In this document: piece after piece, positions 7,675 to 64,000 of the stretch | Layout: each line of letters opens with the position of its first letter | Position numbering within the stretch: the first letter of the stretch is position 1 | From: a virus | Length of the DNA: 64,000 bases | Strand: one strand, 5' to 3' | Virus record (IMG/VR): IMGVR_UViG_3300044987_001050 | Location: 19,187-83,186 of that record | Position numbers and translations under genes: made by a program | Notes under the pieces: generated by a model | Databases searched by the model: none | What the model was told of the DNA's origin: nothing | What the model saw: only the letters and a program-made list of their open reading frames with translations

Positions 7675-8628
7675 ATGAACACAACTGAAATTGAAAGAAA
7701 GAAGGAGAAGAAACTTGATCGGTCGCACTGGATGTGTCGCATTCAAAAGTTTGCTTTTAACATCGACGCGCCAACATACTACATGGGCTACTGCCCGTTC
7801 TTCTGGATGACGTGGCTAGCTCTGCTTGTCTCGCCGTTCGTCGCGCTTTTCAATCTAGTGACTATCCCGGCAACATGGGCATGGGTTAACACTGCCGAGC
7901 CTGTGAAGGAGTATCGGCGAACTACCCGTGAAGCGCTTGAATCGACTCCGCTTCAGCCGTCATTCGCACAAATGCTACAGATGCAATATATGCGTGACGA
8001 CGAACTCACTGGCTGGGATTTGTGGTCGCCTCGGGCTGAACTATTCTCGAACCTTACAGAATGTAAGCGCATCGAAGTTTGGCTGAAGCAGAATCCTAAC
8101 TGGAAAAAGGAATGGCTTGCGAAGGCTAAGGCATGGGATGTTGCACACATCGAAGCAGTTCATGCTTACAACAAACTCAAGAAGGTCCGTGCCGCTCGCC
8201 TATCAAAGGTTAACCGACTCGCCTCAACATGCGGATCAGCTATCTTCAAGGTTCTCATCCCGCTCTCTATCTTTCTTGCGGTATCAGGCGGTGGCTATGG
8301 CGTATACACAATTGCTATCGAGATTAGTCTCGCGAGTTACGTCTTGGCTCTCTGCATACTTACATTAGCAGCTGCTGCGGCCGTCTTAGCCAACATCCTT
8401 TGGGACGCGCTCAAAACCATTCTTGACATTCGAGCGAAGAACAAGATGGCTGTTGAGGACGACAAGATCCCGACCCTAACATGGTGGGACAAGTTCTGCT
8501 CCAAGTTCTCGGCGGTCACTGAATTCATTCACGACACAGTCGCGATTACTTACAAGCAGGAATGTCCGCTCATCATCTGGGGCGACGAAACCGGTCCTAT
8601 CCAAAAACGAAACAAGAATACACAATGA
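7675..8628 (+). CDS. membrane protein, hypothetical
   Basis: 317 aa with about 3 hydrophobic segments; CPFFW and CPLI motifs. Confidence 0.65.
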   Translation: MNTTEIERKKEKKLDRSHWMCRIQKFAFNIDAPTYYMGYCPFFWMTWLALLVSPFVALFNLVTIPATWAWVNTAEPVKEYRRTTREALESTPLQPSFAQMLQMQYMRDDELTGWDLWSPRAELFSNLTECKRIEVWLKQNPNWKKEWLAKAKAWDVAHIEAVHAYNKLKKVRAARLSKVNRLASTCGSAIFKVLIPLSIFLAVSGGGYGVYTIAIEISLASYVLALCILTLAAAAAVLANILWDALKTILDIRAKNKMAVEDDKIPTLTWWDKFCSKFSAVTEFIHDTVAITYKQECPLIIWGDETGPIQKRNKNTQ

Positions 8629-15881: not shown

Positions 15882-16720
15882 TGGCCAACGTTTTCATTAC
15901 ACGCACTAAGGGTACCCGCCGTCCTTCGCGCTACGCTGCCTTTGAGGCAAAGATGCGCGAGGAACAACACAAGCGGATGAAGGAGATCGGCACGCCCACG
16001 ATGTCTGAACTCAAAGAACGGGTCGAGGCGGCTGGCTATCACTTCGGTACCGCTATCAGGAACGAGTTTGTCAATATGTACCCAGCTGGGTATGTCGACA
16101 AAGCGGGTGAGAACCGCAAGTGTTGGGTGACATGGCATCCCACTAAAACCGAGAAGGCAACCCACATCTCGAAGAACTTCGACACACTAACCTACCGCCC
16201 GTTGCTCGACGACGATTTCTGCTTACCCCTACACATGCGATGATACCTCTATTCCAAACGATTGACGTGCACGAAGTGCTTGACCTCCCGATTGTCTTGC
16301 GTGACATGACGAAGACCCTTCGGTATTCATACATAGATCTATACGACCGCTATGAAGAAGCGGTCTTCTATGCCTCGAGTTCAACCGCGGATCAGCATAT
16401 GCTCGATAGTTTTCGGACTAACCCTCCCAAGCCGCCGACATGCGACGATGTTAGGAGTTACGACTTCACCGCTTTAGGCAACACCCTTTTCGTTTACGGA
16501 ATCATATGAAAGCACCAATCACAGTAACAATCACCGGCTTCGTTTCAATGGAACACGCAGAGGCTTGGGCCGCATGGTATGATGGCTCAGGCGAGCAACA
16601 GTCAGACGACTGGCTCGAGGAATGTGATGTTCCATCTGCATACCTCAAAGGCCCGCCGATCATCGAAGAAAACAACATCACGCTGGCCCTTCACGATCTC
16701 CCGCGTGGATGAAAATCTGA

Positions 16721-16756: not shown

Positions 16757-17824
16757 ATGAAAATCGCTTCTGTAGAAAAACTAATTTCTGTTGAACCGCA
16801 TCCAAATGCGGACCGTCTTGATCTCGTCAAGGTGTTGGGTTACCAATGCGTGACCGAAAAGGGCCTGCATTCCGCTGGCGACCTCATCATCTACATTCAG
16901 CCTGACTCTGTCTTGCCTGAAGATGCAGCATGGGCTGAGGGCTATCGCAAGTACTCTCCTGGTCGTATCAAGGCCGTGAAGCTCCGCGGTGAATTCTCGG
17001 AAGGCATCATCGTGAAGTTCGAGCAAGTTGGTTTGGCTAATTCCTACGGGACTGAAGGATTTGATGTTGCTGAATTGCTTGGCGTCAAACACTACGAGCC
17101 ACCGCTTCCCCAAGATCTTTCTGCAAAGGGTGCCCTTCCTTTCGGCATCCCGAAGACCGACGAAGAGCGTTGGGAGAACATCACGGGCCGCTTGCCTTTC
17201 GGTGAGAAGGTTGATGTGTCTCTGAAGATCGACGGCCAATCATGGTCTGCATATTACAATGTCAAGACAAAGGAGTTCGGCGTGCTGGGCCGCACGATGG
17301 AATACAAGGAAGAGTGCTCCAACCGTTACACAGCACAGATCGAACGGTATGACATCAAGAACAAGCTTGTTCAATACTGCACTGAGCTTGGCATGTCGCT
17401 TTGTATCCGAGGCGAGTCTTATGGCGATGGCCTTCAAGCGCACTCATTCAATCCGCATGCGAAGGAAAAGGCAGGTCTTGCTATCTTCTCCGTATATCTC
17501 ATCGATGAACGCCGCTACGCTCGTAAAGGTCATCCGTTCTATTACCCGCTTGTTGCTGAACAACTCGGCCTTCCAACTGTGCCAATCCTCGAGCGTGACG
17601 TGGTGCTTACACAGGAACTCATCGACAAGTACTCCGTTGGTCTCAAGAAGATTGACGGCAAGCCATTCGAAGGCGTCGTGATCAACCACGGTGACTACGT
17701 CATCGAGCGCGAGTCGAACATCATGGTTTGCCCTGACGGAGTTGAACGCGATGTTGGCGGCGCAAAGACATACGTTGCTCATTCCTTCAAGGTCATCTCG
17801 AAGCACTACGATTCACAGAAGTGA
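16757..17824 (+). CDS. RNA ligase, DRB0094/Rnl2-like family
   Basis: N-terminal HPNADRL OB-like module; KIDG, RGE, EGVV, SFKVIS motifs. Confidence 0.9.
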   Translation: MKIASVEKLISVEPHPNADRLDLVKVLGYQCVTEKGLHSAGDLIIYIQPDSVLPEDAAWAEGYRKYSPGRIKAVKLRGEFSEGIIVKFEQVGLANSYGTEGFDVAELLGVKHYEPPLPQDLSAKGALPFGIPKTDEERWENITGRLPFGEKVDVSLKIDGQSWSAYYNVKTKEFGVLGRTMEYKEECSNRYTAQIERYDIKNKLVQYCTELGMSLCIRGESYGDGLQAHSFNPHAKEKAGLAIFSVYLIDERRYARKGHPFYYPLVAEQLGLPTVPILERDVVLTQELIDKYSVGLKKIDGKPFEGVVINHGDYVIERESNIMVCPDGVERDVGGAKTYVAHSFKVISKHYDSQK

Positions 17825-19166: not shown

Positions 19167-19916
19167 ATGCTACCAATCTATAAAGTTGCCGACATTCGGC
19201 AAGCATTCGTTGAAAAATACCTAAGAGGAGATATCGTAACAAATGACACAGGTTCGTTGTCCGGTGCTGATACAGTCGAGATCCTCGGCGCTTCATTCAT
19301 TGCTGACGAGTCTGCAATCTTTGGTGTACCCAACTATCCTTACATCCAAAACGAGATTGATTGGTACATCTCGAAGTCGCTCAACGTGAATGACATTCCT
19401 GGCGAGGTGCCTAAGATCTGGAAGGCGGTTGCTTCTCCTGATGGTCTCATCAACTCGAACTACGGGTACCTCATCTTCTCCAAAGAAAACGGTGCACAGG
19501 TTTGCAATGTCATCGACACGCTATTGCAGTCGCCGTCGTCTCGACGTGCAACAATGATCTACACGCGGCCGACAATGCATGTTGATTTCAACACGAATGG
19601 CATGCAAGATTTCGTTTGCACGAACGCCGTGCAGTACATCATTCGCAACAATCGACTGCACGTGATCGTTCAGATGCGCTCTAACGACGCATGGGCAGGC
19701 TTCCGCAATGACCTGGCTTGGCAACTCTTCGTTCAGAAGTTTGTGCTTTATGCTTTGAATGCGCCACGTTTCAACAGCTTATATGAGCTAGGTGATGTTC
19801 ATTGGCAGGTGTCATCGTTGCACGTCTACCAACGCCAATTCTATTTGCTCGATCACTTCGCGAAGACGGGCGAACACCACATCACGCTCGAAAACTATAA
19901 CAAGCTTTACAAATGA
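19167..19916 (+). CDS. dCMP hydroxymethylase/hydroxylase (T4 gp42-like thymidylate synthase fold)
   Basis: INSNYG, DFVCT catalytic Cys, MRSND, GFRND (Asp = dCMP specificity), SLHVY. Confidence 0.88.
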   Translation: MLPIYKVADIRQAFVEKYLRGDIVTNDTGSLSGADTVEILGASFIADESAIFGVPNYPYIQNEIDWYISKSLNVNDIPGEVPKIWKAVASPDGLINSNYGYLIFSKENGAQVCNVIDTLLQSPSSRRATMIYTRPTMHVDFNTNGMQDFVCTNAVQYIIRNNRLHVIVQMRSNDAWAGFRNDLAWQLFVQKFVLYALNAPRFNSLYELGDVHWQVSSLHVYQRQFYLLDHFAKTGEHHITLENYNKLYK

Positions 19917-54139: not shown

Positions 54140-54224
54140 GCGCACGTGGCGGAATTGGTAGACGCCGCGTCTTTAAACGGCGCCGCCCTCGGGCGTGCAG
54201 GTTCGAGTCCTGTCGTGCGTACCA
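54140..54224 (+). tRNA. tRNA-Leu(TAA)
   Basis: Cloverleaf; GCGTC-TTTAAAC-GGCGC; long V arm; CCA. Confidence 0.9.
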
Positions 54225-56076: not shown

Positions 56077-56740
56077 CATGGCAAGAACCCATTTAACAGA
56101 AGCGGCCAAAACGATCCTAGCTGAAGCATCTGCAAACGACAAGAAGTTCGCGGCTGTTATGGAGCTCGTCCGAAATGTAACCGATCCTGTTCCTCTTACC
56201 AAGTTCAAGATCTCGAAAGGTGTCGGCGGCTACTTCATATCTGACGGCGACGGCAACACCTGGAAAATTCTTGGTGAAAAAAGTTGAAATAATCTCCTCT
56301 TAAGTACTCTCTCTGTATAAATAAATTCACAAGATGAAACACGAACATTCATATAAGCCATCAGATTCGCCGCAAGCGATTCTACGTGCTTGGGTGAATT
56401 TCAGACTAACATTTTCTGGATGATGCATTTCTAACCTCTCTTCTTCGGTCTTGAAATGCATGCTCCTAACAAAGCATGCATTTCAAGTTTACAACCTAAC
56501 ACAAACCTGATACAATATTTCTGTAACGATTGGTGTTGCCACAATCTCAATCGTTTCCTTTTCAAGCAAGGCTTGGATCGTATCTGTTCATTACACTCCT
56601 CTGTCAAAGTTTTCTCATCCGGTCTGAAAAGAGCCTAAGGGAACGCGAAACTGACTCACAGCGCTTCGGCCTGAGTCAACGCTAGCGGGCGAATCCCAGT
56701 TGACCCGAGAAAAATAAAATTCATTTGTAGCACAAAGTTA

Positions 56741-56769
56741 TTTACAAGTGCGAGAAACTTTGATAGAAT
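56741..56769 (+). promoter_or_regulatory. promoter driving the tRNA array
   Basis: TTTACA-17-TAGAAT. Confidence 0.75.
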
Positions 56770-57008
56770 TTGCTGAGGCGATTGATTGAGCGAGTTGCAA
56801 AACTGCTCGGTTATTCTTCCTCCCTCGAAGTGAATATGCTTCGTTGAATCCGTTCTTTGACAATCGAAAACAAAACCAACTGAGGGGAACATGTGTTCAG
56901 TTAGAGCCGCTCCTTCAGGAGTAGAGTTCCACTAATCCCCTCGGTTTCTTTCCGAGATCACGAAAGTGCTGGCTAACAACCCGCGGCGAGTAACTGATCT
57001 CAAACACT

Positions 57009-57080
57009 TTGGCGTTGGTCTAAATTCTAACGACATCAGGTTTCCAACCTGAAGATCCGGAATCGCTCCGGCCGCCAACA
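57009..57080 (+). ncRNA. degenerate tRNA-Gly(TCC)-like RNA
   Basis: TCAGG-TTTCCAA-CCTGA; T arm CCGGA-ATCGC-TCCGG with 5-nt loop. Confidence 0.55.
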
Positions 57081-57270
57081 CTTTAAGGTGACCGCCCTGT
57101 CGTAAGAGTCTGTAGCTCGAAGAGACAAGCTAATCATAATTGCACAGCTGGGTTCGTGCAGCCATTTTTGATGATAGGAAGACCCCAGGATGTCACTAAG
57201 ACTGGCATAGTAAGGAAACCGAATCTGGTATGTGCTCATCAAAATAAGTTAAACATGCCGCGCTTTCAAT

Positions 57271-57365
57271 AGGTTGGTGGAAACAAATTCACAAAGCCAA
57301 GTGGTATGGCATCGGTTCCGATCAAACCGATTTCTTCGAGGGTTCGATTCCCTCTCAGCCTTTCA
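57271..57365 (+). ncRNA. tRNA-like RNA (GAT loop) with ~16-nt insertion between acceptor and D arm
   Basis: AGGTTGG/TCAGCCT acceptor; GCC-AAGTGGTAT-GGC; GAGGG-TTCGATT-CCCTC. Confidence 0.55.
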
Positions 57366-57371
57366 TTTTCA

Positions 57372-57464
57372 GATATGATTAAAGAGCGGTGACTAATTCC
57401 GCGCCTGTCCACTATGCGTAACTCGCGGACTTGTTAGTGTAACGGTAAGCACGTGATCATGTTC
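57372..57464 (+). ncRNA. circularly permuted tRNA-like RNA (YrlA-like topology)
   Basis: Order T arm, closed acceptor, D arm; ends pair as the anticodon stem. Confidence 0.5.
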
Positions 57465-57474
57465 ATTTTCATAA

Positions 57475-57551
57475 CGGGATGTAGCTCAGCTTGGTAGAGC
57501 GCTGCGTTTGGGACGCAGATGCCGTCGGTTCGAATCCGGCTATCCCGACCA
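57475..57551 (+). tRNA. tRNA-Pro(TGG)
   Basis: Canonical cloverleaf, CCA. Confidence 0.95.
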
Positions 57552-57649
57552 CTTTCACGACGAGCTTGTAGTCATGACCAAGCGATGGTTCATAAGTAAA
57601 GCTTTTACGAAAAGCCGTTCGATTCGGCAGTCGAGAAACCCTTTCATAT

Positions 57650-57735
57650 GCGTGTGTTGATCTAGCGGCGAAGACGGAAGATTGTAAACCTTCCCCTTAA
57701 ACGGCACGTGGGTTCGAGTCCCACCGCACGCACCA
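57650..57735 (+). tRNA. tRNA-Tyr(GTA)
   Basis: TTGTAAA loop, V arm, CCA. Confidence 0.85.
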
Positions 57736-57745
57736 CTTTCTAAAT

Positions 57746-57834
57746 TCTCTTGTAGCTCAATGGCAGAGCGGTTGATTGTTAATCAGCAGGCCCTTAAAAG
57801 GTAAATGTAGGTTCGAGCCCTACCAGGAGACCCA
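57746..57834 (+). tRNA. tRNA-Asn(GTT) with long variable arm
   Basis: GTTGA-TTGTTAA-TCAGC; V region AGGCCCTTAAAAGGTAAAT; C discriminator. Confidence 0.8.
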
Positions 57835-57842
57835 CTTTCAAT

Positions 57843-57916
57843 GCTGCTATCGTCTAAGGGTAGGACGCCTGACTTTCAATCAGCAAATCGGAGTTCAACT
57901 CTCCGTAGCAGTACCA
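57843..57916 (+). tRNA. tRNA-Glu(TTC)
   Basis: CTTTCAA loop, CCA. Confidence 0.88.
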
Positions 57917-57924
57917 CTTTCAAA

Positions 57925-57999
57925 TGGATTGTAGCTCAGAGGCAGAGCACCCGCCCGATAAGCGGTAGGTCGAGATTTCGAAATTCTCCAGTCCAACCA
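57925..57999 (+). tRNA. tRNA-Ile(GAT)
   Basis: CCGATAA loop (C33), CCA. Confidence 0.85.
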
Positions 58000-58001
58000 T
58001 T

Positions 58002-58076
58002 TTACGTATCGTCTAAATCATAAAGATGCCCGACCATGAATCGGGAGATGCGAGACATTGAAGCTCGCTACGCAAT
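58002..58076 (+). ncRNA. tRNA-like RNA with ATG loop and aberrant T loop
   Basis: CCCGA-CCATGAA-TCGGG; GCGAG-ACATTGAAG-CTCGC. Confidence 0.5.
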
Positions 58077-58078
58077 CC

Positions 58079-58138
58079 GCACCCCGCGCATACCCGGCCG
58101 GGACCAAGAGTCATGATCTTGATGTAGGGGTGCAACCA
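58079..58138 (+). ncRNA. T-armless tRNA-like RNA (CAT loop)
   Basis: GCACCCC/GGGGTGC acceptor; CAAGA-GTCATGA-TCTTG; ends ACCA. Confidence 0.55.
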
Positions 58139-58152
58139 CTTTCTGAAACAGA

Positions 58153-58229
58153 CGGGGCAAAACATTGCTGGTTGATGTACTAGGCTCTTAACCTTGAGAA
58201 CTCGGTTCGATTCCTGAGTGCCCCGACCA
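58153..58229 (+). tRNA. tRNA-Lys(CTT)
   Basis: CTCTTAA loop; bulged T stem; CCA. Confidence 0.8.
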
Positions 58230-58236
58230 TTTCAAA

Positions 58237-58311
58237 TCCTGTGTAGCTCAGCGGCAGAGCGGGTGACTGTTAATCACTAGGTCCTTGGTTCGATCCCAAG
58301 TTCAGGAGCCA
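58237..58311 (+). tRNA. tRNA-Asn(GTT)
   Basis: Canonical, GCCA end. Confidence 0.93.
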
Positions 58312-58332
58312 CTTTCAAAATCATTCATCAAC

Positions 58333-58407
58333 GCTCACGTGGGGGAATGGCTACTCGGCAGATTGCAACCCTGTCCTATGTCGGTTCGAGTCCGGCCGTG
58401 AGCTCCA
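58333..58407 (+). tRNA. tRNA-Cys(GCA)
   Basis: TTGCAAC loop, TCCA end. Confidence 0.85.
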
Positions 58408-58416
58408 ATTTTATTT

Positions 58417-58492
58417 CCGAGGGTAGCCTAATCGGTTAAGGCCCTGCACTGTGAATGCAGCTATTCGGGTTCGATTCCCGGCCCGCGGACCA
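58417..58492 (+). tRNA. tRNA-His(GTG)
   Basis: CTGCA-CTGTGAA-TGCAG; A73 rather than C73. Confidence 0.88.
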
Positions 58493-58508
58493 TTTTCTTT
58501 TAACATAT

Positions 58509-58592
58509 GCGCGGCTGGTGGAATGGTATACACGGCAGTTTTAGAAGCTGTTGCCTTCGGGCTTGGGGGTTCGAGTCCCCCGTCGCGCACCA
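58509..58592 (+). tRNA. tRNA-Leu(TAG)
   Basis: TTTAGAA loop, V arm, CCA. Confidence 0.92.
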
Positions 58593-58602
58593 CTTTCATA
58601 AT

Positions 58603-58690
58603 GCTGCAGTAGGGTAATGGTAGCCCCCCAGAATTTCACTCTGGCCGATCGCAAGATCTCGTGCGGGTTCGACTCCCGTCTGCAGTTCCA
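58603..58690 (+). tRNA. tRNA-Glu(TTC) with long variable arm
   Basis: CCAGA-ATTTCAC-TCTGG; V arm GATC-GCAA-GATC. Confidence 0.78.
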
Positions 58691-58702
58691 CTTTCATTCA
58701 AT

Positions 58703-58779
58703 CGCGGGGAGGACAAGACGGTTAGTCGGCAGTCTCATAAGCTGCAATCTGGGAGATTCGAGCGCTCCACCCGCAACCA
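58703..58779 (+). tRNA. tRNA-Met(CAT), initiator-like
   Basis: C1:A72 mismatch; CTCATAA loop; atypical T loop. Confidence 0.75.
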
Positions 58780-58792
58780 CTTTCAAACATAA

Positions 58793-58867
58793 GCCTCTAT
58801 CGTTTAATGGATAGGACTCTCGCCTTCTAAGCGACTAACGTAGGTTCGATTCCTACTGGAGGCACCA
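58793..58867 (+). tRNA. tRNA-Arg(TCT)
   Basis: CTTCTAA loop, CCA. Confidence 0.9.
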
Positions 58868-58882
58868 CTTTCAAATTTTCAT

Positions 58883-58958
<76 letters not shown>

Positions 58959-58968
58959 CTTTCATAAT

Positions 58969-59101
58969 GCCGGATTAGTTTAATGGGAAAACGGTACACG
59001 ATGGCTAGCTCTCACCTAGTAAAGGAGCAAGATTGAGTAGGCCTCAAAATCTGCCATCTCGATGTAACAACGCGGAGGTTCGATTCCTTCATTCGGTTTC
59101 A
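58969..59101 (+). ncRNA. tRNA-like RNA with ~60-nt branched domain replacing the anticodon loop
   Basis: GCCGGAT/ATTCGGT acceptor, D arm, TTCGATT T arm; insert closed by GATGGC/GCCATC. Confidence 0.65.
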
Positions 59102-59114
59102 TATTTTCAAATAA

Positions 59115-59189
59115 GGAGCATTCGTATAATGGTCATTACGACCGCCTGTCGAGCGGTATACACGGGTTCAATTCCCGTATGCTCCGCCA
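59115..59189 (+). tRNA. tRNA-Asp(GTC)
   Basis: ACCGC-CTGTCGA-GCGGT, GCCA. Confidence 0.9.
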
Positions 59190-59197
59190 ATTTCAAT

Positions 59198-59275
59198 TGC
59201 GGATAGGACAAGATGGTTAGTCGCCACCCTCATAAGGTGGATCTCTGTGGGATTCGAGCGCCCAGTCCGCAACCA
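59198..59275 (+). tRNA. tRNA-Met(CAT), paralog of 58703
   Basis: CCACC-CTCATAA-GGTGG; same D and T loops as 58703. Confidence 0.75.
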
Positions 59276-59285
59276 CTTTCATAAA

Positions 59286-59345
59286 TGATAGAGCGTCTGC
59301 TTTGCAAGCAGAATGTAGATGGTCCGAATCCGTTAATCTCTATCA
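59286..59345 (+). ncRNA. D-armless tRNA-Ala(TGC)-like RNA
   Basis: TGATAGAG/CTCTATCA terminal stem; anticodon arm identical to tRNA-Ala 58883. Confidence 0.55.
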
Positions 59346-59361
59346 CTTTCTAAACATAGAT

Positions 59362-59437
59362 GGGCTCGCATGTACCTCGGGGGCGAGAAACACTTGCAAT
59401 GTATCTGTGGCCGGTTCGATCCCGGTCGGGTCCACCA
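59362..59437 (+). tRNA. tRNA-Ala(TGC), atypical D arm
   Basis: G3:U70; CTTGCAA loop; CCA. Confidence 0.75.
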
Positions 59438-59448
59438 ATTTCAACAGT

Positions 59449-59886
59449 ATGGCACTAAGTCAACGATATCACAAGACAGGAAGAACCAAGCGAACAGTTC
59501 AATGCGCTCATTGCAGCAAAGACACTCACAATGGCAAATTCTGCTCGACTGATTGCTCGTTCAGATTCAAAGAGGCTTCATTGCTAAAGAGAATCTTAGA
59601 TGATTCAATTGTAGGCACGGTTGCTCTTAAGCGATATGTGTTATCGCTGAATCCTAAATGTTCTCTGTGCCCATGCACCGACGAGTGGAACGGATTGAAA
59701 CTCGTTCTTCATTTGGATCACATAGATGGCGATAGTGACAACGATAGACTTTCAAATGTTCGTCTGTTATGTCCTAACTGTCATTCACAGACGGAAACAT
59801 ACTGCTCGAGAAATAAAACTAATCCAAACTCGAAGAGATCAAAACGTCTCCGACGAGCACCATCAAGGTGCAAACAAATTTCATAA
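59449..59886 (+). mobile_element. HNH homing endonuclease inside the tRNA array
   Basis: CSLC, LHLDHIDGD..N....N.RLLCPNCHSQT. Confidence 0.88.
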
Positions 59887-59887
59887 T

Positions 59888-59962
59888 GCGCGCGTAGCTC
59901 AGAGGTAGAGCAAGTTCCTTACAAGAACGAGGCCGAGATTTCAAAATTCTCCGTGCGTACCA
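59888..59962 (+). tRNA. tRNA-Val(TAC)
   Basis: CTTACAA loop, CCA. Confidence 0.87.
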
Positions 59963-60005
59963 TTTTCAGGAGGGCCCGAGTCCATGTCTCCTCCGCAATT
60001 AACAT

Positions 60006-60080
60006 GCCACCGTAGCTCAGAGGCAGAGCGACCGTTTCATAAGCGGTAGGCCGGGATATCATGATTCCCCGGTGGCACCA
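60006..60080 (+). tRNA. tRNA-Met/Ile2(CAT)
   Basis: ACCGT-TTCATAA-GCGGT; T loop ATCATGA. Confidence 0.78.
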
Positions 60081-60120
60081 ATTTTCATTCTTCGAGATCG
60101 CTTGCAGGCATCTCGGACAA

Positions 60121-60249
60121 GCGCGCGAACATATCAGACCGATGAGCTGCAACTCGTCAAGATGGTATGATGGCGGTCGACTAGAGGATAAGTCACGGGC
60201 TCTATAGTCTGGACGCGGGTTCGAATCCCGCTTGCTGTATGTCGCGCGC
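60121..60249 (+). ncRNA. structured RNA with canonical T arm and long terminal stem
   Basis: GCGCGCGA.CATA.CAG/CTG.TATGTCGCGCGC; GCGGG-TTCGAAT-CCCGC. Confidence 0.55.
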
Positions 60250-60262
60250 AAGTTTTTCAAAC

Positions 60263-60336
60263 AGGTGGGTCGTTCAATGGTAGGACCTTGGATTCCAAAC
60301 CCAAAGACTAGAGTTCGATTCTCTATCCACCTGCCA
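60263..60336 (+). tRNA. tRNA-Trp(CCA)
   Basis: TTCCAAA loop, GCCA. Confidence 0.9.
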
Positions 60337-60353
60337 CTTTAATAAATACATGC

Positions 60354-60545
60354 ATGAAGACATTCCTTGAGTTCATTGAAAAATCGCCTAAGCTCGGTGA
60401 TACGATTACATGGGCAGCTGGCGAAAGACGATTGAGCGGTAAGGTGATTCGAGGCATGGATGGCCAAAAGCTAGTCGTTAAACATCCTACTGCTTATGGA
60501 CAAGAGATTCCGATCTCGTCATTGCGCGGAATCAAGATAAGCTAA
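60354..60545 (+). CDS. small late protein with capsid-targeting-like N-terminus
   Basis: MKTFLEFIE; AATAAATA upstream. Confidence 0.65.
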   Translation: MKTFLEFIEKSPKLGDTITWAAGERRLSGKVIRGMDGQKLVVKHPTAYGQEIPISSLRGIKIS

Positions 60546-60556
60546 CTACTTTCTTG

Positions 60557-60585
60557 TTTACATTTTCTCTTGACTGTTGTAGAAT
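60557..60585 (+). promoter_or_regulatory. internal promoter of the tRNA array
   Basis: TTTACA-17-TAGAAT. Confidence 0.75.
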
Positions 60586-60670
60586 AACACATGCTGATTG
60601 AGCGTTGCCCGAACAACCGGACAACTTAAATAACCGCTAATGAGGTGGCCAATCAACATATCATCTTTTA

Positions 60671-60757
60671 GCTGTGGTCGCTTAGTGGTCGATAGCACCG
60701 GTTTTGTAAGCCGGATGGGCAACCTCGCCGTGAGTTCGAATCTCACTCACAGCTCCA
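60671..60757 (+). tRNA. tRNA-Thr(TGT) with long variable arm
   Basis: CCGGT-TTTGTAA-GCCGG; V arm GG-GCAA-CC. Confidence 0.8.
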
Positions 60758-60764
60758 TTTTCTT

Positions 60765-60890
60765 TTCATGATAGCAAATCGGTAAAGCGGTTGGATAGTA
60801 GCCTATTACACATGGCCAAACCTGACGATGAATCACGAGTGGTGCTCGGAAGATTCAAACAATGATGGACTCAAACCCATCTCATGAAAA
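60765..60890 (+). ncRNA. expanded tRNA-like RNA
   Basis: TTCATGA/TCATGAA acceptor, D-loop AAATCGGTAAA, extended arms, GATGG/CCATC T stem. Confidence 0.5.
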
Positions 60891-60901
60891 ACATTTTCCA
60901 T

Positions 60902-60999
60902 CGGGGCGTTAACATAGCTTGGCAATGTGGGCGACTTGGAATCGCTTGAGGGCAGAAAGAGTCTGTCTTCCGTGGGTTCGAATCCCACCGTCCCGACCA
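60902..60999 (+). tRNA. tRNA-Pro(TGG) with long variable arm
   Basis: GGCGA-CTTGGAA-TCGCT; V arm GGGCAGA-AAGAG-TCTGTCT. Confidence 0.8.
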
Positions 61000-61004
61000 A
61001 TTTC

Positions 61005-61080
61005 GTTGATGTATCGTCTAAGTGTAAGGACACTCGCTCTCCAGCTTGAAATACGGGCTTTTTCAATCCGTTGCATCAAC
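61005..61080 (+). ncRNA. degenerate tRNA-like RNA with 9-bp terminal stem
   Basis: GTTGATGTA/TGCATCAAC; D arm GTCT-AAGTGTA-AGGAC. Confidence 0.45.
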
Positions 61081-61133
61081 TCGTTTTGCTTAATGTGGGA
61101 TTTCGCCACACCTATTCCCTAGGCGCACACTGT

Positions 61134-61227
61134 GGAAGGCTGGCAGAGTCTGGTCTATCGCGTCTGTCTCGAAAACAGATGGTCTGTGAAAGCAGACCCG
61201 TGGGTTCAAATCCCACGCCTTCCTCCA
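61134..61227 (+). tRNA. tRNA-Ser(CGA)
   Basis: TCTGT-CTCGAAA-ACAGA, V arm. Confidence 0.9.
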
Positions 61228-61328
61228 TTTCAAAGATGAATTCGATTAACAGAAGGTCTGTTGAATCACAGCATGAGTCGAGAATTCAACCGGTGCTCGT
61301 TCACCGTTCATGCAAACGAGATTTTCAT

Positions 61329-61419
61329 GGGTGTTTGGTCGAGTGGTTTATGGCGCCAGTCTTGAAAACTGGAGATGGTTAACAGCTGTCCGTGGGTTCA
61401 AATCCCACAGCACCCGCCA
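61329..61419 (+). tRNA. tRNA-Ser(TGA)
   Basis: CCAGT-CTTGAAA-ACTGG, GCCA. Confidence 0.92.
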
Positions 61420-61523
61420 CTTTTAGACGGAGTAAAATCCTATCGAGCGGTTAGGCTGAAAGGCCATTGCGTCGAAATGCAACGAACAATAACCCGGCAA
61501 ACACGTTGCTCTGATATTCATAT

Positions 61524-61611
61524 GCGTCACGAAAGCAGGCGGCTTCCTGCAGCAAGACTGTAAATCTTGTCTCTTCACCGAGGAGTGGGTCGGCACCACC
61601 GGGGCGCACCA
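61524..61611 (+). tRNA. allo-tRNA-like (8/4 fold) RNA, GTA anticodon
   Basis: 8-bp acceptor, 5-bp D stem, 6-bp anticodon stem, V arm, 4-bp T stem, ACCA. Confidence 0.6.
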
Positions 61612-61619
61612 ATTTCAAT

Positions 61620-61737
61620 AGGACTACGGCTCTGCTGTTCTAACAGCGATTCTTTCAGGGAACGAGACAAGCAAGCCTGTAAACTTGCTACCGGTGCTCC
61701 GGTTAGACTTAGGGGAAGATCCTGAGTAGGCCTACCA
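61620..61737 (+). ncRNA. tRNA-like RNA with branched D domain and GTA-containing 8-nt loop
   Basis: AGCAAG-CCTGTAAA-CTTGCT; ACCGG/CCGGT V arm; ends ACCA. Confidence 0.55.
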
Positions 61738-61749
61738 ATTTACAAATCC

Positions 61750-61976
61750 TCGCTGTTAATCAGCAGCTAGTGTGTTCACGAAGAAAATGGTAAAGGAACG
61801 GCAAGCCTTTGCTCACACGAAAGAAGCCTGTAGCACAGGTAAAAATCGTAAGCCAAAGGTTGTTATGATAAGCAACAAAGGGCGTCCCGGCTACTGAGGC
61901 CGTATCCCACAGTTCATTGGAGCCTAACAGCGATGAAGGTGAACAAACCGCTTCGGCGGTTGTGAGAATCAGCGAC
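61750..61976 (+). ncRNA. ~225-nt multi-hairpin RNA of unknown class
   Basis: TCGCTGTTA/TAACAGCGA long-range pairing and several hairpins; no + strand ORF in the track. Confidence 0.45.
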
Positions 61977-61985
61977 TTTCTATAA

Positions 61986-62060
61986 CCACCCATAGCTGAA
62001 ATGGATTAGCACAGGATTGAAACCCCTGAGATGTTGGATCGTTACCAACTGGGTGGGCCA
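61986..62060 (+). tRNA. tRNA-Phe(GAA), atypical
   Basis: TTGAAAC loop; T loop ATCGTTA; GCCA. Confidence 0.72.
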
Positions 62061-62069
62061 CTTTCAAAT

Positions 62070-62144
62070 GGGCGTAAAGCTTTAATGGTGAAGCTTCCGA
62101 CTTTTAATCGGATGAACTGGGATCGTTACCCAGTGCGCCTACCA
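62070..62144 (+). tRNA. tRNA-Lys(TTT)
   Basis: TCCGA-CTTTTAA-TCGGA; T loop ATCGTTA. Confidence 0.83.
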
Positions 62145-62154
62145 ATTTCATAAC

Positions 62155-62234
62155 GCGTCGTTCGCATAGTCTGGCTTATCGCACTTGTTTTCCAAACAAG
62201 CACCTCGTGGGTTCGAATCCCACACGACGTACCA
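62155..62234 (+). tRNA. tRNA-Gly(TCC)
   Basis: CTTGT-TTTCCAA-ACAAG, CCA. Confidence 0.85.
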
Positions 62235-62373
62235 CTTTAACAGCTAACCAATCATCTGACAAAGATGACATGCATCACTCGCTTGTATTTGATTGGTTAG
62301 AACGCTAAGCAGCACAATGGTAAGCGTTAATCGGGCCTCTAGGTGCTCGTCGTGTGCAACCTTTAATTTTCAT

Positions 62374-62448
62374 GCGCGTATCGTATAACGGTTATTATGA
62401 TGGCTTGCCAAGTCATAAATGGGAGTTCGATTCTCCCTACGCGCACCA
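62374..62448 (+). tRNA. tRNA-Gly(GCC)
   Basis: ATGGC-TTGCCAA-GTCAT, CCA. Confidence 0.9.
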
Positions 62449-62472
62449 CTTTCATTTCATATAAATAGTTTC

Positions 62473-62691
62473 ATGGGACACAAACCAAATTCTATTTTCG
62501 AAGCAGCGCACTCAGTGTTGACAAATGAAGCGAACGTTCCACCACCTCGCGTGTCGAAGGAAATTCGTTACAAGAATAAAAGTGGCGAAACCCGCGTAAG
62601 CTCGGTCAGTCCTGCAAAGGAAGACGAAGAAGTTAAACTGATCAAAGCGTTGGGTGGCACGATCGTCAAGATCACTGACGTCACGCACTAA
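62473..62691 (+). CDS. small late protein
   Basis: TATAAATA at 62460-62467, ATG 5 nt downstream. Confidence 0.65.
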   Translation: MGHKPNSIFEAAHSVLTNEANVPPPRVSKEIRYKNKSGETRVSSVSPAKEDEEVKLIKALGGTIVKITDVTH

Positions 62692-62702
62692 TAATTTCAA
62701 AT

Positions 62703-62777
62703 GGCCCGTTGGTATAACGGATAGAACATCGGCTTGCGAAGTCGAGGATCCAGGTTCGATTCCTGGGCGGGCTACCA
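62703..62777 (+). tRNA. tRNA-Arg(GCG)
   Basis: TCGGC-TTGCGAA-GTCGA, CCA. Confidence 0.87.
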
Positions 62778-62784
62778 TTTTTTA

Positions 62785-62907
62785 GGGAGGTTAGTTTAAA
62801 GGTAAAACCTCGTGACTAAGCGAGCGATGTTGTTAGGTAATCAAGGAGAATGACGTCAACTCCTTCTTGTGCGTTCTAACTCGGTTCAAGTCCAACATCT
62901 CCCACCA
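62785..62907 (+). ncRNA. tRNA-like RNA with ~50-nt insertion in the T stem and 6-nt anticodon loop
   Basis: GGGAGGT/ATCTCCC ACCA; GTTG[insert]G-TTCAAGT-CCAAC. Confidence 0.6.
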
Positions 62908-62916
62908 TTTTCCAAT

Positions 62917-62999
62917 TGACGCGAAGCCTAGCGGCCTGGCGCCGGTCTTTGAAACCGGAGAGAGCAATCTCATCGTGGGTTCGAATCCCACCGCGTCTA
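62917..62999 (+). tRNA. tRNA-Gln(TTG) with long variable arm
   Basis: CCGGT-CTTTGAA-ACCGG; V arm GAGA-GCAA-TCTC; no encoded CCA. Confidence 0.75.
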
Positions 63000-63034
63000 C
63001 TTTCCTTTAAGATTCGAACCATATAAATAGATAT

Positions 63035-63655
63035 GTGTACTACACTGTCTATAAGATTACGAATCAAGTGAACAACAAGATTTATGTTGGAGTTCATAAG
63101 ACGCGCAATCTTGATGATTCTTACATGGGTTCAGGGCTAATGCTAAAGAGAGCAATCACTAAGCATGGTCTCGAAAACTTCAAGAAGGAATATCTTGCGG
63201 TCTTTGACAATCCTGATGATATGTTTAACATGGAATCTGAATTAGTGAATGAAGACTTCGTTAAGTCAACTCATTCTTACAATATGAAGGAAGGCGGGCA
63301 TGGAGGATGGGATCACATTTCGCAAACTACTAGGCATGCTGCTCAGCTTAAAGGAGCACGCGCCATCGCTCATAGAATAAAAACTGATCCTATACTCAGA
63401 AAACAAAACTCAGACAGATGCAAAGCAACTACTGCTAGATCTAAAGAGGCAGGATTATACAAAGGCAAAAAAGCTTTCTTAGGCAAATCTCATTCTGATT
63501 CAACACGAAAGAAGATGAGCGTGTCTCATCAAGGAAAACATGACGGCTCAAGAAATTCTCAGTTTGGTTCCATGTGGATCACTGATCGAGTTTCAAACAA
63601 AAAGATTTCAAAAGACGATCCTATTCCAGACGGATGGATGAAAGGTCGAACATAA
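63035..63655 (+). mobile_element. GIY-YIG (Seg-like) homing endonuclease with NUMOD3
   Basis: YTVYKITN..NNKIYVGVH, YMGSG, YNMKEGG, GKSHSDSTRKKMS; late promoter at 63022. Confidence 0.9.
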
Positions 63656-63661
63656 TTTCAT

Positions 63662-63733
63662 ACTCGTATCGTCTAGCTGGATAGGATGTCCCTGCGCAGG
63701 GAGACGGTGGTTCGATCCCATCTGCGAGTTCCA
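63662..63733 (+). ncRNA. tRNA-like RNA with tetraloop in place of the anticodon loop
   Basis: ACTCGTA/TGCGAGT TCCA; TCCCT-GCGC-AGGGA; normal D and T arms. Confidence 0.65.
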
Positions 63734-63743
63734 ATTTGCTAAG

Positions 63744-63889
63744 GAGCGGGTATGCTCTGGCCTGACGGATAGTGACCGTTCATAGACGAAGCCGTTGGTA
63801 ATCGGTTCCAACTTAGTAACACTTTGAGTATGCCAATGCGTTCGGTAGGTAACATTGCATGGCATGAGTAACCCGGAAACGCATCCGCT
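63744..63889 (+). ncRNA. structured RNA of unknown class
   Basis: GAGCGGGT.TGC/GCATCCGCTC terminal stem enclosing several hairpins. Confidence 0.45.
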
Positions 63890-64000
63890 CATGCTGATAA
63901 CACCGACTCGTCAGTACACTTTTGCAATGTGTGTTCGAGCATTCGAGAGTACGGACTTTTACTCCGGAAAGTGCGGATGCTGTAATCTGATCATACTCAT

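Follow-up and report, generated by a model that had tools for sequence, protein, structure and literature searches.

Why should a phage place, among the ordinary members of a long transfer RNA (tRNA) array, so many RNAs that keep some arms of the tRNA fold and break the others? This question is raised by the last 64,000 nucleotides (nt) of the IMG/VR virus record IMGVR_UViG_3300044987_001050 (positions 19,187 to 83,186 of an 83,186-base record, with a completeness estimate of 47%). We refer to this whole stretch as the window, and coordinates are those of the window unless a relative is named. The array spans approximately 56.9 to 64.0 kb, up to the contig end, and the end of the record falls within it. 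A first-pass annotation, made from the sequence alone, had described more than 15 tRNA mimics among about 30 normal tRNAs and had read them as selected, processed RNAs countering host toxins and sensors directed at tRNA. The answer obtained here is a mixed one. We consider it about an even bet (probability roughly one half) that the array combines irregular but working tRNAs, a few RNAs acting by shape only, among which element C is a candidate Y-RNA-like molecule, and products of recombination.

Results

Conserved families of irregular units

The evidence that carries this reading comes from six families, namely elements A, B, C, D and E and an irregular tRNA-Lys(CUU) (u08; all coordinates are given in Table 1). 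They recur in phages with 56-66% identical RNase H and show changes on both sides of their stems. An RNase H search gave 267 related IMG/VR stretches, the closest at 66% amino-acid identity. The five long relative records searched represent three lineages: G001, G002 (equal to G005) and G004 (~98.6% identical to G003); the arrays of G001 and G004 carry the locus labels L198 and L199. A fourth, more distant lineage is metagenome contig L208, which holds one element only (A). Judged by their substitutions, the six families are working RNAs kept by selection, not dead copies. To this extent the earlier claim of selection rather than decay stands, and compensatory pairs in two units with a CAU anticodon support it as well; it does not reach ten other units, which have no homolog or informative strain variation.

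Element A numbers exactly as a 76-nt tRNA, with anticodon UGC, a G3:U70 pair, A73 and CCA. Its D stem is shifted, having 4 base pairs (bp; CTCG/CGAG) and a GGGG loop after a 7-nt linker. The element is 95% identical in G001 and G004, whereas normal tRNAs reach ~72-90% in the same BLAST table (Pro, at 95.7%, excepted), and it is also found in L208, where ARAGORN calls it tRNA-Ala. The G3:U70 pair is kept in 4/4 copies. Over the cloverleaf 8 of the 21 pairs have changed on both sides and 96.8% of the cells are paired, a value that was reached in none of 500 shuffles. RNAalifold also offers an alternative in which the anticodon pairs with positions 7-9; this was rejected, having no compensatory support and one broken pair. 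A pattern for element A retrieves the known relatives only in IMG/VR and three loci in metagenome contigs; L207 proved a chance match and L208 a real, divergent copy.

Element B is folded by unaided RNAalifold (4 copies) into an 8-bp acceptor stem, a 4-bp T stem and an anticodon stem of 6 bp capped by a CUGUAAA loop; the variable hairpin is limited to 3 bp, while a D stem of 5 bp carries a loop of 5-6 nt. Six of its 26 pairs have changed on both sides, among them acceptor pairs 6, 7 and 8, the T stem being invariant, and 96.2% of the cells are paired. Covariance models of both elements were scanned over 62 sources (863 kb of related loci). The model for A scores 96-105 bits on its 4 copies against at most 43 on normal Ala tRNAs, and the model for B 103-115 bits on the copies of the window, G001 and G004 (two copies) against at most 35 on normal Tyr tRNAs. 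A and B are families distinct from their normal paralogs, ~50-70 bits apart. For B, the combination of A73 with a GUA anticodon suggests a tyrosine identity rather than the serine identity of allo-tRNAs.

The third family with a recognizable anticodon, u08, differs from a regular tRNA by an additional base on the 3' side of the T stem. It has homologs at L198 2913-2989 (89% identity) and at L199 2190-2265, called Lys(ctt) by ARAGORN, and the CTCTTAM loop is retained. The two CAU units, CAT1 and CAT2, are paralogs that have the A53xG61 mismatch in common; three stems (acceptor, anticodon and T) each show 2 both-sided changes between them. CAT1 is missed by both ARAGORN and Rfam. A 7-nt anticodon loop, U33, a purine at 37, a 7-bp acceptor, a discriminator and CCA, taken together as the features of a functional decoder, are present in the sequence of A, B (with an 8-bp acceptor), u08, CAT2 and, apart from two mismatches, CAT1. 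C, D, E, u10, u26 and u27 lack the full set. Several of the odd units are probably just unusual working tRNAs: because their 7-nt anticodon loops are intact, they end in ACCA and their stems covary, they would still be charged and used.

The remaining three families have no usable anticodon. Element C consists of a 5' hairpin followed by a 10-bp closing stem with a bulged A, which surrounds a complete cloverleaf (7-bp acceptor, D arm, 'anticodon' arm with a 4-nt loop, T arm) without discriminator or CCA. RNAalifold on the copies of the window, G001 and G004 gives 46 pairs, of which 16 have changed on both sides. Since the loop at the anticodon position varies between 4, 5 and 7 nt in the three phages, C cannot decode. 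Its covariance model scores 131-160 bits on these three phages only; ARAGORN reports a tRNA-??? at 60170-60239, within C. The element has invariant single-stranded blocks, including GCGAACATA at 60125, and adjoins A on A's upstream side in G001 and G004.

In element D an 18-nt hairpin separates the 5' strand of the acceptor from the D arm, the 'anticodon' loop has 9 nt and TCA replaces CCA; in its homolog at L199 7589-7699 (Rfam 36.5 bits) the insert measures 36 nt and the loop 8 nt, and CCA is present. Pairs that have changed on both sides number 3/7 in the acceptor, 1/6 in the anticodon stem and 1/5 in the T stem. Element E has a homolog in G001 (L198 8816-8896), with both-sided changes at 5/7 acceptor, 1/5 D-like, 2/5 middle-hairpin and 2/4 T-stem pairs. 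Close to both lies element F, which also has a homolog in G001 (L198 ~8509-8580). The closing stems of the two copies differ by one compensatory pair; Rfam gives no match to F, which looks like a small RNA that binds a ligand or a protein. In the window F, D and E cluster with tRNA-Pro; in G001 the cluster comprises F, E and Pro, and in G004 D lies near Pro. No BLAST match for A, B or C was obtained in GenBank phages.

Table 1. Positions of the irregular units and of associated features (window coordinates unless a relative is named; z, fold z-score)
Feature	Position	Strand	Details
Element A, tRNA-Ala(UGC)-like, 76 nt	59362..59437	+	ends ACCA + spacer
Element B, 8/4 tRNA, GUA	61524..61611	+	ends ACCA + spacer
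u08, irregular tRNA-Lys(CUU)	58153..58229	+	Rfam 27.5 bits
CAT1, tRNA(CAU)-like	58703..58779	+	C1xA72, A53xG61 mismatches; ends ACCA + spacer
CAT2, tRNA(CAU)-like	59198..59275	+	acceptor 7/7, A53xG61; ends ACCA + spacer
Element C, 167-nt RNA	60090..60256	+	homologs in G001, G004
Element D, tRNA-shaped	57271..57361	+	Rfam 27.8 bits; z = -2.55
Element E, tRNA-shaped	57555..57636	+	no recognizable anticodon loop, no CCA
Element F, structured, not tRNA-shaped	57166..57244	+	9-bp closing stem; core motifs GATAGGAAGACCCCAGG, AGTAAGGAAACCGAA
u01, tRNA-Gly(UCC)-like	57009..57078	+	T loop AATCGCT non-consensus, no CCA; 30.7 bits
u05, 'permuted' unit	57372..57464	+	10-bp closing stem around three hairpins; z = -0.42
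u07a, cloverleaf-like	58005..58072	+	4-bp acceptor, 9-nt T loop
u07b, T-armless	58079..58138	+	acceptor 7/7, loop GUCAUGA (CAU), AA, CCA + spacer
u10, insert-bearing tRNA body	58969..59098	+	Rfam 35.7 bits; z = +0.27
u12, D-armless	59287..59344	+	new 7/7 closing stem, no CCA; z = -2.33
u19a, 76 nt	61005..61080	+	7/7 Watson-Crick closing stem, D-arm-like 5' part, no CCA
u23, GUA loop	61620..61737	+	two D-region hairpin inserts, acceptor 6/7, ACCA + spacer
u26	62785..62907	+	acceptor 7/7, D arm, 6-nt 'anticodon' loop, ACCA + spacer; 22.4 bits
u27	63662..63733	+	7/7 acceptor, D + T arms, UCCA end; GCGC tetraloop for anticodon loop; 31.1 bits
Long class I tRNAs	57746-57834, 58603-58690, 60671-60757, 60902-60999, 62917-63000
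HNH endonuclease open reading frame (ORF) within array	59449..59886	+	Pfam HNH, 21.6 bits
GIY-YIG homing endonuclease ORF within array	63035..63655	+	Pfam GIY-YIG, 26.9 bits
RNA contig	56959-57197		depth 54
RNA contig	60642..60908	+	depth 7.45; long-arm tRNA-Thr and following 144-nt spacer unit
RNA contig	61721..61975	+	depth 52.7; ends one base before CTTTCT spacer; z = -1.08
RNA contig	63744..64000	+	depth 14.6; begins 10 nt past u27 CCA, runs off contig; z = -0.99
Promoter-like site TTTACA-17-TAGAAT	56741..56769	+	upstream of array; consensus match only
Promoter-like sites of like form	56488-56516, 60557-60585		consensus match only
Ro60/TROVE + vWA gene, relatives	G001:C1:79087-79716 (L210 1910-3217); G004:C1:44724-45407
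tmRNAs, relatives	L198 14205-14540; L199 13764-14100; L200 7782-8101

Composition of the array

ARAGORN reports 26 tRNA genes at 57475-63000 and one at 54140, and Rfam at the gathering score finds 26 tRNAs in the window; their union is 26 tRNAs in the array and one outside. The called tRNAs span all 20 amino acids, the CAU anticodon of the Rfam-only gene at 60006 being read by eye. Where the first-pass annotation had counted about 30 normal tRNAs, 26 are called, and three of its 'mimics' (Lys-CUU at 58153 and the two CAU units) turn out to be near-normal tRNAs missed by the programs. Its count of more than 15 cloverleaf-breaking elements is borne out by at least 18 units with tRNA parts besides the called tRNAs: 16 units tabulated in the survey, element C and the 'permuted' unit u05. 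Stems are well paired, as had been stated: of 16 closing acceptor-like stems 11 pair at 7/7, the 8/4 unit at 7/8, three at 6/7 and CAT1 at 5/7, and one has 4 bp only. A common ending recurs, with an encoded CCA followed by N-T-T-[TC]-N in 26 of the 27 called tRNAs (the exception is Gln at 62917) and CCA plus spacer in 9 of the 16 tabulated odd units. Eight of the nine named examples fold as described. The case for the ninth, the 'permuted' unit at 57372, is weak: its z is -0.42, it lacks a T loop of the consensus type, and the relatives have no homolog of it.

The scans that had been proposed yield, next to the 26 array tRNAs, seven near-threshold tRNA matches between them, which were obtained with the sensitive mode of Rfam. 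Three odd units exceed the tRNA (RF00005) gathering cut-off of 29 bits, at 58969-59098 (35.7 bits, 130 nt), 63662-63730 (31.1) and 57009-57079 (30.7), and four fall below it, at 57293-57355 (27.8), 60170-60239 (27.6), 58153-58225 (27.5) and 62785-62904 (22.4). A, B, CAT1, CAT2, E, u07b and u12 give no RF00005 match at E <= 10. Beyond the tRNA clan, the Rfam scan for known large phage RNAs gave chance matches only.

Two sequence signals were also counted. Strict T-arm hairpins (5/5 stem pairs and a loop T[TG]C[AG]AN[CT]) number 22 in the called tRNAs. The array gaps (4,158 nt) contain 5 of them, against a single one in 56,204 nt elsewhere and 2 over the full length of the minus strand; when the gap sequence was shuffled 1,000 times, the mean was 0.055 and the maximum 2. 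The word CCA[ACT]TT[TC][TCA] occurs 34 times in the array against 10 times outside. Three relative arrays have 40, 41 and 23 Rfam tRNA matches. Outside the ARAGORN and Rfam calls, consensus T-arm hairpins in them number 7, 7 and 1, and there are CCA-plus-spacer ends in numbers of 11, 13 and 8. Fold z-scores, on the other hand, fail to separate the odd units (+0.27 to -2.66) from four normal tRNAs (-1.25 to -2.95).

Some called tRNAs are themselves long. Five class I tRNAs (Asn, Glu, Thr, Pro and Gln; 84-98 nt) contain extra variable-region sequence, and G001 and G004 likewise have long tRNAs for Thr, Pro, Glu, Asn and Lys.

Units found in one lineage only

For ten units (u01, u05, u07a, u07b, u10, u12, u19a, u23, u26 and u27) BLAST at E <= 0.05 retrieved no homolog from the relatives, shared T arms excepted. 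Among them, u01 has an acceptor of 6/7 and z = -2.66 (it lies inside the RNA contig 56959-57197), and u07b has z = -2.57 with an ensemble frequency of 0.77. In u27 nothing past the T arm has a homolog in the relatives. In u26 ~50 nt are inserted in the T stem, and only the 3' 30 nt match relatives. In u10, with an acceptor of 7/7 and both D and T arms, a ~64-nt domain replaces the anticodon arm and there is no CCA. The 112-nt units at L198 8642-8753 and L199 8005-8116 have the same plan (tRNA body, long stem at the anticodon position, no CCA), a likeness of build only, with no demonstrated homology. The idea that u10 is a shrunken transfer-messenger RNA (tmRNA) was rejected: it occupies the place of the relatives' tmRNA, but has C3-G70 and only an 8-nt common word (E = 1.7).

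A comparable insertion is observed in G004, where a tRNA with a normal body (L199 14277-14394) carries a 46-nt AT-rich insert in the anticodon loop. By our reading the insert follows position 37 of a UUG (Gln) loop and precedes position 38; it is intron-like, though far short of a group I intron.

How much of this could be decay? One might take all odd units for functionless duplicates and recombination scars of a fast-turning array. In favour of this, u12 is plainly a truncated 3' copy of tRNA-Ala(UGC), 81% identical to 58896-58963. Its differences are unevenly spread: the first 36 positions have 4, whereas the following 25, which make up the T arm and acceptor strand, have 9 (Fisher p = 0.027). 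Furthermore, 44% of the gap positions are unaligned between G001 and G004, homing endonuclease genes lie in the array, and several folds are no better than those of shuffled sequence. Strain variation gives little guidance: the phage's own contigs from three DNA runs show 0 other letters over most pieces, and the listed differences mostly come from short contigs of other organisms' tRNAs. The ten lineage-only units may be products of decay or recombination debris. The six families tell otherwise, keeping their stems through both-sided changes at 56-66% RNase H identity; element A, at 95%, stands above most normal tRNAs, and the CAU paralogs differ by compensatory pairs.

RNA signals

One small metatranscriptome contains four contigs identical to array segments (Table 1). 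No depth is seen in it on the endonuclease ORFs or on other segments of the 7.1-kb array, and this uneven cover argues for RNA over carried-over DNA. All four stretches fold no better than shuffles (z -0.7 to -1.1), and the one at 61721..61975 has no homolog in the relatives. The uncovered parts of the array in run X20, as well as run X21 (0.01 of words), are uninformative either way. For the claim that the units are processed, the four contigs provide a hint, although contigs cannot show RNA ends.

Genes and signals around the array

A TROVE search matched G001 and G004. Their TROVE proteins measure 435-455 amino acids (aa), and the 435-aa ORF of G001 scores 59 bits for TROVE and 29.6 bits for a Ro60-type vWA domain. 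The gene is located ~5 kb past the array, beyond the point matching the end of the window contig, with PurA, UvdE, RlaP and a metallophosphoesterase as neighbours. The first-pass annotation had listed Ro60-type sensors among possible targets; Ro60/TROVE-vWA is indeed encoded by G001 and G004, but as the phage's own protein and not as a host sensor. That points to RNAs which would partner the phage's own protein in the manner of Y RNAs, rather than to decoys aimed at a sensor of the host. In all, 18 IMG/VR loci hold homologs of the G001 protein. Three further loci were scanned with Rfam (L218, L221 and L226), and in each of them tRNA genes flank the TROVE gene; L226 has a weak YrlA match (32 bits) directly upstream of it. 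On L221, an unrelated 176-kb contig, a CyVA-1 RNA (15914-15990; Rfam 53.1 bits, above cut-off) was seen in the tRNA array after the TROVE gene.

In three relatives the array contains a full-length tmRNA (94-129 bits), which immediately follows tRNA-Ala; its tag ends in ...LALAA (by ARAGORN for G002, by eye for G001). It is absent from the assembled array of the window: ARAGORN finds none, and Rfam gives partial RF00023 matches of 16-22 bits on A and C against a cut-off of 47 bits. RlaP is present in G001 and G002, and RtcB and the PolyA_pol/CCA-adding family in 0/4 records. The window itself encodes an RNA-ligase-family domain (PF09414, 44.9 bits) at 17210-17692 in a 367-aa ORF, possibly an RNA or tRNA repair enzyme. 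Among the tRNAs of the relatives are one with anticodon CUA, of the amber suppressor type (ARAGORN 'Pyl(cta)'; L198 12059-12133 and L199 11607-11681, Rfam 66 and 60 bits), and a tRNA-Ile(UAU); neither is seen in the window.

The phage is placed as T4-like by a T4-type RNase H (Pfam) and by homing endonucleases 49% identical to those of T4-like phages, a figure that holds for the GIY-YIG ORF of the array. The same DNA is present in 19 freshwater or lake metagenome runs. In GenBank phages there is no near match of the array except for single tRNAs, and the 329-aa protein upstream has no relative in IMG/VR. A scan of IMG/VR for the spacer-pair pattern gave at least 117 loci, of which BLAST against the array matched only L108, with a single 58-bit hit. 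No other IMG/VR contig carries the 40-nt word at the window end, and the contig was not extendable toward the Ro60 gene or tmRNA.

Approximately 720 nt of non-coding sequence (56288-57008) precede the first tRNA-like unit, and the region of interest thus starts before 57009. It contains a late-promoter-like word, TATAAATA, at 56316-56323 and two promoter-like sites of the form TTTACA-17-TA[CG]AAT. The total number of such sites, 6, is below the shuffle mean of 11. Within the array an 11-mer, CTAACAGCGAT, occurs at 61640-61650 and 61924-61934 and nowhere else in the window; the local folds of its two copies differ. The word ACAGC is present 9 times in the array, in several cases within a tRNA, and ACAGCAA not once; no handle common to the units emerged.

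Discussion

We propose that the array serves translation and RNA handling in this freshwater T4-like phage, as an island conserved across the clade. It would provide a full decoding set in which A, B, Lys(CUU) and the two CAU units take part. C, D and E, which cannot decode, would act by shape. In C the acceptor stem is sealed by the bulged helix and the anticodon loop has shrunken; it would most likely serve as a Y-RNA-like partner of a Ro60/TROVE protein of the type found in G001 and G004, whereas D and E may bind another tRNA-recognizing factor or act as processing handles. Because HNH and GIY-YIG genes lie within the array, its units are expected to turn over, and the truncated, chimeric and insert-bearing copies of one lineage would stem from duplication and endonuclease-driven recombination; some may be neutral.

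Several observations weigh against this reading. Covariation is based on only 3-4 independent lineages, and the ten units without homologs draw no support from it. The thermodynamic signal is weak for four units (A, B, CAT1 and CAT2), with z from -0.1 to -0.5. RNA evidence is limited to contigs from one small library, which cannot show RNA ends and may include carried-over DNA. Other observations concern the Y-RNA part. Neither C nor u05 gives a match to YrlA (RF02553; cut-off 69 bits) at E <= 10, and the weak YrlA matches in the window (17-24 bits) fall on ordinary tRNAs. The motif GNCGAAN0-1G has five matches in the array (57667, 60420, 62553, 62623 and 63785), none of them in C or u05; C has GCGAAC. 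No TROVE gene is found in the 83-kb record of the window, which ends inside the array, or in G002. In G001 and G004, C does not adjoin the Ro60 gene but lies ~11 kb from it. Directly behind that gene both phages have structured RNAs with 10-12-bp closing stems, which differ between the two and are unlike C, and these may be the real partners.

A bolder view, which we regard as unlikely though worth stating, is that the clade has turned the tRNA fold into a toolkit. Each anticodon would be offered on several rebuilt bodies, and sealed or anticodon-less shapes would be dedicated ligands, some arming a phage Ro60 particle and others sponging up host enzymes that attack or sense tRNA. The array would then be an RNA conflict module as much as a decoding set.

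Decoys as such, the proposal of the first-pass annotation, appear distinctly improbable to us. Odd units would here soak up or inhibit host anticodon nucleases, acceptor-end modifiers and tRNA sensors. Very different bodies do present one and the same anticodon loop, namely GUA three times (57650, 61524 and 61620), UGC three times (58883, 59287 and 59362) and CAU on four units (58079, 58703, 59198 and 60006), and the unit at 63662 and the G004 copy of D combine an acceptor stem and CCA with the lack of an anticodon. RNA-repair-type genes (RlaP, RNA ligase) occur in the clade, and phage tRNAs have been reported against tRNA-cleaving defences (PMC10264068, PMC11464382, PMC11555353). Yet the best-conserved odd units (A, B and Lys-CUU) look usable as tRNAs, E, the window copy of D, u10 and u12 have no CCA, and the most decoy-like units are those without homologs.

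We give similarly little credit to the view that non-decoding units are mere processing punctuation, marking the cuts of RNase P and 3' enzymes without a later role; such cuts would free the neighbouring tRNAs, small RNAs and endonuclease mRNAs. The junction CCA-NTT[TC]N is common to 26/27 tRNAs and 9/16 odd units, odd units flank ORFs (A before the HNH gene, u27 after the GIY-YIG gene), and two RNA contigs start or stop at unit borders (63744 and 61975). However, RNA ends are not provable from contigs, and most ORFs are already flanked by ordinary tRNAs. Punctuation also leaves unexplained the 95% identity of A, unpaired D region included, and the invariant single-stranded blocks of C. Debris, finally, is refuted as an account of all units by the six covarying families, and we deem it very improbable.

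Standard tRNA finders miss at least a third of the array's RNA genes, conserved ones included. The 8/4 tRNA with a Tyr anticodon, the rebuilt-D Ala tRNA and the sealed cloverleaf are test cases for how far the tRNA fold can be bent for charging, EF-Tu and other readers.

Comparison with known systems

A literature search gave no paper on an 8/4 GUA tRNA, a rebuilt-D Ala tRNA or a sealed cloverleaf, outside the supplements of Mukai et al. 2016 and Chen et al. 2014, which may list similar units. The closest parallel to element B is found in the phage tRNA clusters of alpha-proteobacteria, for which 8/4 tRNA-Ser and tRNA-His have been described (Mukai et al. 2016, PMC5389517); the same paper presents 'polycistrons of irregular tRNAs'. 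With the 8/4 tRNAs presented in the main text of that paper, B has in common a 12-bp acceptor branch split 8/4. Its anticodon stem, lengthened to 6 bp, its variable hairpin and its long-stemmed, small-looped D arm recall theirs at least in part. It differs in its GUA (Tyr) anticodon, A73 and 3-bp variable stem; the 8/4 forms there are Ser, His, Cys and Sec, and the word 'tyrosine' does not appear in the main text, the supplementary phage-cluster figures lying outside that scope.

Like the phages whose tRNAs defeat tRNA-cleaving defences, the present one has a large tRNA set able to replace host tRNAs lost to a nuclease. The cases in the parts of those three papers considered here are anticodon-loop changes or single rescuing tRNAs, unlike the rebuilt bodies and anticodon-less mimics of this array.

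In T4 itself (NC_000866), rnaC and rnaD (species 1 and 2) are located at the end of the tRNA cluster and the homing endonuclease segB within it. The present array resembles this arrangement in having a GIY-YIG gene and non-tRNA RNAs in the tRNA cluster of a T4-like phage, and in the fold of T4 rnaC a consensus T arm adjoins the 3' end, as it does in the insert-bearing units. There is no similarity in sequence or model to the T4 RNAs, the covariance model of C giving 8.6 bits on rnaC, on the T arm only; and T4 has two such RNAs against at least 18 units of many builds here.

For element C the comparison leads to Ro60. The Y RNAs to which Ro60 proteins of bacteria and phages bind include a tRNA-like domain (Chen et al. 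2014, PMC4201824), and the Ro60 of Thermus phage phiLo, with Yrl1/Yrl2, is described as binding and dampening host PNPase (Hu et al. 2025, PMC12135203). C differs from YrlA in being not permuted and not adjoining the Ro60 gene in the relatives. It resembles D. radiodurans Yrn1, as far as the cited account describes it, in having a terminal helix and a tRNA-like domain with the order D arm, short-looped arm, T arm. The Ro60 gene, tmRNA and RNA-repair genes near these arrays offer a testable route to the role of a phage Ro60/Y RNA particle, and the same route bears on the long-unexplained species 1 and 2 RNAs of T4.

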